Virus record (IMG/VR): IMGVR_UViG_3300011008_000041
Span: 8,097-72,096 of that record
DNA from: a virus
Taxonomy: Duplodnaviria > Caudoviricetes
Length of the DNA stretch: 64,000 bases
Reading direction: 5' to 3' (one strand)
The notes beneath the pieces are model-generated. The model made no database searches. It worked only from the letters and a program-made list of their open reading frames with translations, and had not been told where the DNA came from. How positions within the stretch are numbered: position 1 is the first letter of the stretch; each line of letters starts with the position of its first letter. A program made the translations under genes and the position numbers. Positions 6,592 through 7,723 of the stretch are shown piece by piece.

Positions 6592-7723
6592 CTAGCCGTG
6601 CCTCGGCGACCCAAACCACGCCTGCCCATCCGCTCCGGACCGCACCACAACGCATCATTCCAAACCACGCCTGCCAAACCGAACCCTTCCGATCCCATCC
6701 GCACCGGACCTAACCTTGCCTGCCATACCACGTCCACCCTCGGCTCTACCGACCTCGCCATCCATGCCTGCCAGCCTTGCCATTCCGTACCGCGCCGAAC
6801 CTTGCGTCAACGCGCCATGCCGAGCCGCGCCTGCCATAACGTTCCCTTCCGGGCCCAACTCTGCCTTGACAAGCCATGCCAGCCAGTCCACACCTGAGCA
6901 TGCCGTTTCCCACCGGAACTGACCTCGCCTTGCCCGCCATGCCTCACAGATCCAAAGCGAACACTACCGAAGCCAACCATGCCCGCCGCGCGTAGCCACC
7001 TCGTACCGTAACTAGCCTCAGCAAACCGGGCCTGCCATGCCCAGCCATGTCCCGCCTTGACGTTCCGAACCTGAACGGACCATGACTGCCAAACCGCCCG
7101 TGCCGTACCGGGCGCAGCCTACCCGGACCATGCCAGCCGTACCGTACCAAAGCCCACCACAACAAGCCGTGCCATGTCACACCGGAACTGCCTTGCCTGG
7201 ACGTGCCTGACCTCGCGTCGACTTTCCACGCCTAGCCTAGCCTGGCAAACCGTACCGAAGCTCATCCAACCGGAACCAACCGAGCCCCGCCTAAACCCGC
7301 CTGTCATATATGTACCGAGCCCAGCCCCGCAAAGCCGTTCCACAACTGGCCCTTCCTTGCCTGCCGCACCGAGCCTTTCCAGACCGTGCCTAGCCCCAGC
7401 GAAGCATGCCCCGCCTGCCGCACCGAGCCGAACCTTGCCAAACCCCGCAAGACCCAGCCTAAACAGAGCGAACCGTGCCTTGCCTGCCTTGCCGGACCTA
7501 GCCGGGACAAACCGGGACTTGACACACCTAGCCTGCCGGGCCATTCCACGCTCTGCCACGACGCACCGCTCAGGACCACGCCATTACGTGACTTGCCTTG
7601 CCTGCCAGTCCATGCCATAACGAGACGCGCCAAGCCCCGCCATCCTTACCCTGACCGCCGTACCGAACCAATCCAGAACGGGCCCAGCCAAACCGGAACA
7701 TGACTTACCCAGCCGTGCCTGTC
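6592..7723 (-). ncRNA. GGY-NN pentamer-periodic guide array (about 20 units; VIPR-like guide RNA array)
   Basis: Plus strand reads RCC-NN repeated, e.g. gcc aa acc ga acc ct tcc ga tcc ca tcc gc acc gg acc ta acc tt gcc. 21 delimiters of type gcc-n-gcc; 15 of 20 spacings equal 4+5n nt. Confidence 0.85.

Follow-up and report, generated by a model that had tools for sequence, protein, structure and literature searches.

A phage-encoded staggered VIPR array carries a guide unit predicted to read the catalytic motif A of rival family-A DNA polymerases

The closest described relative of the locus analysed here is VIPR (Viral Interference Programmable Repeat), in which the RAMP protein Vipr uses RNAs built of GGY/NN repeats (vrRNAs) to bind double-stranded DNA by a 1-nt-skip code and to silence competitors. 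Vipr polymerises with one protomer per GGY/NN repeat, burying the GGY and presenting the NN; these dinucleotides pair with the dsDNA target, from which each third base is flipped out, and binding represses transcription. Natural targets lie mostly in coding sequence, where the skipped base is the wobble position, and belong to rival phages, satellites and other VIPR systems (bioRxiv 10.64898/2026.04.26.720920, 10.64898/2026.04.26.720927, 10.64898/2026.10.15.759431). For the VIPR of Escherichia phage SUSP1, natural targets on both strands, dsDNA binding in vitro, repression from either strand and a dsDNA R-loop triplex resolved by cryo-EM have been described (10.64898/2026.04.26.720920, 10.64898/2026.04.26.720927).

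The VIPR preprint survey comprises 664-667 systems. Staggered arrays, in which vrRNAs overlap by 1 nt, appear as a figure only (fig. S18) and, unlike two other architectures, are unconfirmed by sRNA-seq (10.64898/2026.04.26.720920, 10.64898/2026.04.26.720927). A guide placed on a catalytic core with the wobble base skipped has already been published for a satellite recombinase (10.64898/2026.10.15.759431), while "polymerase" as a word is absent from two of the three VIPR preprints. Here we describe an array within a 64,000-nucleotide stretch of phage DNA (the window, at its whole length), which covers 8097-72096 of an IMG/VR virus record that is 72,096 bp long and carries direct terminal repeats. 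Judging from the sequence, positions 6774-6831 probably encode a single vrRNA guide belonging to a VIPR system of the phage, and this guide would target motif A of rivals' polA, a reading to which we assign a probability of roughly 0.85. The kind of system is one already published, and the polymerase target class appears to be new.

The cassette lies on the minus strand. A 222-aa vipr gene (7730-8398; length set by homologue comparison) encodes a RAMP/Cas7-like, predicted GGY-binding protein. The vrRNA array (6575-7726, ~1.15 kb) is located between this gene and a 149-aa, vap-like candidate accessory gene downstream of it (6094-6543), which starts at an ATG at 6543 with a GGAGG ribosome-binding site and whose length is backed by gene calls in close relatives. 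A phase-tracking parse resolved the array into ~20 guide units and ~200 GGY-NN repeats, with 7-14 dinucleotides per unit. On the plus strand the array (6575-7726) is 43% C, and its C autocorrelation reaches 0.46, 0.43, 0.37 and 0.30 at lags 5, 10, 15 and 20. Units are separated by 4-nt steps, mostly GCC-T-GCC; the resulting 7-nt junction is the only recurring element, and the units abut without conserved sequence between them. The stretch 6575-7726, flanked by the two minus-strand genes, holds no convincing ORF. Rfam returned no family on 6000-8300 at E values up to 1, and the array had no blastn match among 50,697 phage records.

The polA guide unit (6774-6831, minus strand) comprises 11 GGY-NN repeats. 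On the plus strand it reads gcc TT gcc AT tcc GT acc GC gcc GA acc TT gcg TC aac GC gcc AT gcc GA gcc GC gcc, that is, 11 xCC-NN pentamers and a closing GCC, exactly as the earlier note had parsed it. The dinucleotides in plus-strand order, TT AT GT GC GA TT TC GC AT GA GC, correspond to codon positions 1-2 of FIVADFSAIEA. A 4-nt GCC-T-GCC step flanks the unit at either end, visible as CTGCC at 6768 and 6831: the GCCTGCC junction at 6766-6772 (GGCAGGC on the minus strand) forms the 3' edge of the guide on the RNA strand, and that at 6829-6835 its 5' edge. An extra 4-nt step, gcc-A-gcc, occurs at 6770-6776, next to the 3' junction. Two of the 11 GGY triplets are degenerate (GTT and CGC on the RNA strand); degenerate triplets are frequent in vrRNAs according to the VIPR preprint. 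Elsewhere in the array, at 7247-7358 of the window, a run of 23 dinucleotides proceeds without a junction, and the close relative L303 has two separate units with differing middles at this place. This run may be a fusion of two guides.

Searches of the 222-aa protein against Pfam, PHROG functions and PADLOC yielded no match. Its family is nevertheless large, with 2,596 clusters (50% identity) at an E value of 0.001 or better and homologues of 215-222 aa. A profile of 95 homologues matched the PDB entry 36pp_D, "SUSP1 Vipr protein", at an E value of 3.8e-14 (profile 57-215, chain 24-189), and the single sequence matched SUSP1 Vipr at 2.9e-5 over the thumb and the G-loop. In SUSP1, R138, D177, W178 and R179 are reported to hold the GGY bases (bioRxiv 10.64898/2026.04.26.720920, 10.64898/2026.04.26.720927). 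A phmmer alignment places R167, E207 (a conservative change), W208 and R209, respectively, at these positions, while SUSP1 H17 and K33 fall outside the aligned part. Amongst the 95 homologues R167, G204 and R209 are invariant, and G206 is nearly so. An AlphaFold model computed with the alignment reached a pLDDT of 95.5 (39.7 without it), and its top Foldseek matches in the PDB were all Csm3, Cas7-11, type VII Cas7 or Cmr chains at a probability of 1.00. By profile, contact residues and predicted structure, the 222-aa protein is a homologue of Vipr, a small RAMP with a predicted Cas7/Csm3-like fold.

Comparison of 23 related loci disclosed period-5 GG arrays at the same position in 20, with hypervariable NN, and homologues of the 149-aa gene after the array in 20; other neighbouring genes are not conserved. 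The 149-aa protein matched phrog_15946 (unknown function), and its Atlas neighbours are viral hypothetical proteins; Pfam, PADLOC and PDB searches gave no match for it. One Vipr homologue of 72% identity is labelled Alistipes MAG, a label that we do not take as evidence of the host. In Gordonia phage UmaThurman (NC_031249.1), the CDS gp40 at 33362-33685 (L271:3134-3457), annotated as "hypothetical protein", consists of GGY-NN repeats in a staggered arrangement, with GGCAGGC junctions, and lies directly downstream of gp39, a Vipr homologue (38% identity); gp40 is probably not a protein gene, and the role of accessory gene would fall to gp41 (140 aa). Mycobacterium phage Saal (NC_023580.1) carries a GGY-NN array with GGCAGGC junctions at about 36578-36823 (L272:2100-2345), upstream of gp51, a Vipr homologue (28% identity), and 27 Mycobacterium phage records of the phage collection contain Vipr homologues. 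Phages of Gordonia and Mycobacterium smegmatis are thus tractable carriers of the same staggered arrays.

To locate targets of the polA guide, we ran its 11 dinucleotides as an NNx pattern, with the third base free, on IMG/VR and on one genome per bacterial species. Exact matches numbered at least 111 in viral contigs and at least 120 in those of bacteria. Each of the 111 viral sites examined keeps the reading frame, encoding FIVADFSAIEA in 107 cases, LIVADFSAIEA in 2 and FMVADFSAIEA in 2, within the common protein context SQLIRTAF.P..G.KFIVADFSAIEARVIAWLAGE. The bacterial contigs derive from Lachnospiraceae, Oscillospiraceae, Ruminococcus, Clostridium, Selenomonas and Bacillus, and from Actinomycetota including Mobiluncus, Actinomyces and Gardnerella. 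Matched ORFs are family-A polymerases (PF00476; E 6.6e-21 and 6.5e-24) adjoining a single-stranded DNA-binding protein (SSB) gene of PF10991. With HMMER, the target site aligned to ADYSQIELRVLAH, within ...FAADYSQIELRVLAH... of solved Pol I large fragments. This Pol I stretch is motif A (ADYSQIELR), which holds the catalytic aspartate. The dinucleotides of the guide are codon positions 1-2 of (F)IVADFSAIEA, the strand and loop of motif A.

These results bear out what the earlier note had proposed from the letters alone, namely that the dinucleotides spell motif A of a family-A polymerase and that an NNx search would find in-frame polA sites. Its reading of the unit as a guide likewise fits the published VIPR mechanism (10.64898/2026.04.26.720920, 10.64898/2026.04.26.720927). 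It had further placed the targets in gut or Firmicutes phages; the range is wider, since exact sites also occur in Actinomycetota prophages.

The match to motif A goes well past what chance would yield. In principle, 11 dinucleotides read degenerately could happen to spell a known motif, given that each NN allows one or two amino acids, that ~200 dinucleotides were scanned, and that 16 of the 20 units are without a found target. Against this stand at least 231 exact 22-base matches, every one of them at a single homologous site, compared with 0 for the reverse order of the same dinucleotides in the IMG/VR viral contigs and 0 for shuffled orders in 1-1.9 Mb of local loci. In addition, a second unit matches the gene adjacent to polA in the same module, and further units match relatives' vipr and a helicase motif. 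An accidental resemblance is therefore extremely improbable, and we regard it as ruled out by the reverse-order and shuffle controls.

Pattern scans pick perfect sites by construction; hence a separate sample was chosen by homology of the polymerase protein. We searched 399 evenly drawn Clostridia species genomes with the target polymerase protein (E 1e-30 or better) and found the gene in 36 (~9%). From these carriers 30 loci were returned, with 48-68% protein identity to the query. The polA guide matches 11/11 NN in 9 of them, 10/11 in 18 and 9/11 in 3, so that all 30 reach the cut-off for natural targets used in the VIPR preprint, at least 80% NN. Mean pairwise identity across the 30 sites is 0.909 at the 22 read positions versus 0.410 at the 11 skipped (wobble) positions, and the footprint of the guide is a local maximum of read-position conservation within +/-20 codons. 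A contiguous 33-nt guide assembled from the most frequent base at each position would agree with no more than 21-30 of 33 bases (64-91%) across the same sites.

The phage itself appears to be spared. No polA gene is present in the window or in the whole 72-kb phage, as the earlier note had stated for the window. An identical target elsewhere in the phage's own genome, which it had named as evidence against its reading, was not found: the best own-genome match of the polA guide is 6/11 NN (55%). No array unit reaches 80% NN on the own genome, where the best match per unit is 39-75% NN. Elsewhere in the window, the phage encodes a large serine recombinase at 11704-13299 (plus strand; domains Resolvase, Recombinase and Zn_ribbon_recom) and, at 1470-2414 (minus strand), an AAA_24/Sak4-like protein. 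The phage is probably temperate, and its own replication module is probably unlike the targeted one.

Targets were found for 4 of the 20 units (polA, SSB, relatives' vipr and an SNF2-like helicase) and for none of the other 16; all four found targets match on the sense strand. The SSB guide (7136-7188, minus strand; NN = VVNPTKVITG) corresponds to the N-terminus of an Enc34-type ssDNA-binding protein encoded beside polA. It reaches at least 80% NN at 41 of the 231 polA loci, compared with 0.0 in shuffles. Its best targets read VINPTKVITG and differ by a 1-nt mismatch, and the target ORF belongs to PF10991 (Enc34-type ssDNA-binding protein, E 1e-76).

The first guide of the array (7657-7719, minus strand) is a candidate anti-vipr guide directed at the 3' end of relatives' vipr genes, matching L304 at 11/12 NN, L303 at 10/12 NN and L128 at 23/24 nt. 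Its match to the phage's own vipr (7733-7771) is 9/12 NN (75%). Over all units, the own-genome target search gave nothing above shuffles except this first unit against the adjacent vipr 3' end, a match that is not significant on genome-wide statistics alone (p ~0.25 for 14 NN). The anti-vipr reading is convincing because of the matches in relatives. In L303, a 98%-identical relative (L303:3669-3760), the first guide matches the vipr of the present phage at 11/12 and its own at 8/12. Sequence comparison thus points to reciprocal targeting of vipr 3' ends between nearly identical phages.

The SNF2 guide (unit 7538; 7535-7602 of the window) matches GITLTAAGTMVFY, beside helicase motif VI, at 12/13 NN. 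This target lies in an SNF2/DEAD-like helicase encoded by a provirus of 71,205 bp that occurs in three samples (L307-L309). No polA motif-A site is present in the provirus, which also shows no similarity to the present phage, and the SNF2 guide match is absent from five whole polA-bearing target genomes. The proposal that this guide is aimed at the same replication module is consequently not supported, and of the three guides once thought to converge on one module, the polA and SSB guides do so and the SNF2 guide does not.

Several other units were compared with candidate targets. Unit 6836, next to the polA guide, was considered as a second polA guide and rejected: its near-matches of 15-16/18 nt all fall at a constant site on the antisense strand of polA, 162 nt upstream of motif A, none of them at 80% NN, and the sole exact viral match falls in an unrelated gene. 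These near-matches are probably due to chance. The core pattern of unit 7420 had 0 viral matches. Units 6939-6980 and 6676-6717 share the run AA GA CT GA CA (M-S-E-K-E-L-E-Q-I and K-E-L-E-Q-A-G-Y-L) and resemble two offset guides aimed at the N-terminus of a single gene; no target of the shared run was present among the local loci examined. The unit at 7489-7530 (NN TT GG TA GG AA GG TT AC TA) corresponds, with a 1-nt mismatch, to FGYGKGYTY in a 114-kb viral record that also has a polA site, where the match is on the minus strand of L145 (G002). Variants of this guide recur in L117, L118, L304 and L305.

The polA guide is identical in two close relatives, L303 and L304, whose Vipr proteins are 98% identical. 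This could be a result of recent common ancestry alone, the unit being an inherited, disused guide kept by descent in an array that serves as a fossil record of past conflicts. Vipr homologues were also scarce among sampled bacterial genomes, at 1 of 400 for Clostridia and 0 of 401 for a sample of the phylum that contains Bacteroidota (the phylum of a Chitinophagaceae MAG). Against disuse, 9 to 14 other units are changed, replaced or split in L303 and L304, while the polA guide and its three neighbours are unchanged. The guide also matches living target genes perfectly or nearly so in hundreds of genomes, and IMG/VR data set 3300045988 includes both contigs with VIPR relatives and contigs with target loci, a co-occurrence in one data set and not in one cell. 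We therefore consider a disused unit very unlikely and favour a guide still directed at rivals' polA.

The proposed mechanism would begin with transcription of the array from the minus strand together with vipr, after which the array RNA would be cut at its GGC-N-GGC junctions. One Vipr protomer per repeat would bury the GGY, and the filament would display the NN pairs; these steps are taken from the VIPR preprints. The dinucleotides would pair with the sense strand of the rival polA with the wobble bases flipped out, giving a gapped R-loop/triplex that blocks transcription. With polA silenced and the adjoining SSB gene covered by the second guide, the competitor would no longer replicate. Since the guide reads nothing but the bases that determine the amino acids of a catalytic motif, a rival could not escape by synonymous substitution.

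Alternatively, the same RNA-protein filament could act on the polA mRNA and not on DNA, blocking translation or triggering decay. The geometry would allow it, as the guide is complementary to the sense strand and all four known targets are sense, and the nearest CRISPR structural relatives of Vipr, Csm3 and Cas7-11, target RNA. A strand bias is nonetheless not callable from four targets, and Pfam, PHROG and PADLOC searches identified no nuclease in the cassette. The SUSP1 precedent points to DNA as well, with its natural targets on both strands, dsDNA binding, repression from either strand and R-loop triplex (10.64898/2026.04.26.720920, 10.64898/2026.04.26.720927). An mRNA target is on balance unlikely, and transcriptional silencing at the polA gene is the mechanism that we retain.

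The staggered array could arm the phage broadly instead of against a single neighbour, one guide being able to silence the polymerase of essentially every member of a prophage family spread over Bacillota and Actinomycetota (30 of 30 sampled). We advance this tentatively, at somewhat less than even odds, on the ground that the 11 repeats of the guide cover the 11 most conserved codons of the catalytic motif. The guide provides a natural example of the logic of the code, in which reading only the amino-acid-determining bases of an active site covers a whole gene family.

Comparison with other repeat-based systems sets the locus apart from all but VIPR. It shares with the filaments of Class 1 CRISPR systems (Cas7/Csm3/Cmr4, Cas7-11) the RRM core, the G-loop and the thumb, one protomer per fixed guide segment and periodic base flipping. 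In contrast, the guide period is 5 nt with 2 nt read, versus 6 nt with 5 read in Class 1 CRISPR, and target and guide periods here are 3 and 5. A CRISPR-Cas reading was rejected: TRF detected no CRISPR-type direct repeats of 20-40 nt with spacers in the window, and no cas genes or Cas families were found among the 10 flanking ORFs scanned. TRAP, the trp RNA-binding attenuation protein, also binds as an oligomer to RNA with a conserved triplet every 5 nt, in the form of (G/U)AG-NN repeats with 2-3 variable spacer bases. Its spacers carry no information and its fold is unrelated, whereas here the spacers are the information-bearing part.

With VIPR, as known from the type II system of SUSP1, the locus has in common a small RAMP homologous to Vipr, GGY/NN guides and a two-gene cassette with a candidate accessory gene. 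Matching by the 1-nt-skip code at the wobble position, a catalytic-core target, anti-vipr guides with self-sparing and the lack of a self-target at 80% NN or above are also shared. VIPR guides have 9-16 YNNGG (GGY/NN) repeats, compared with 11 in the polA unit and 7-14 across the present array. All the sequence-level defining features of VIPR that we tested are present, except the 3' tail of type II. Unlike type II arrays (SUSP1 / P. fulva clade), the array has no invariable 3' tail of ~40 nt and no pseudoknot (SUSP1 clade); it is not type II because its units abut via GGC-N-GGC steps without a tail, and its architecture fits the published "staggered array". It holds ~20 guides, versus 4 in SUSP1. 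The Vipr protein is distant from that of SUSP1, being alignable over ~160 residues, and the accessory protein is without a recognisable domain, while VIPR systems have adjacent vap1-6 genes. The target here is a family-A DNA polymerase together with an SSB in prophages of Bacillota and Actinomycetota. If staggered arrays are truly cut at junctions of 1-nt overlap with neither tail nor ribozyme, the processing or measuring mechanism would be new to VIPR. The polA guide and its targets provide independent, purely computational support for the 1-nt-skip code of VIPR in a distant clade with a different array architecture.
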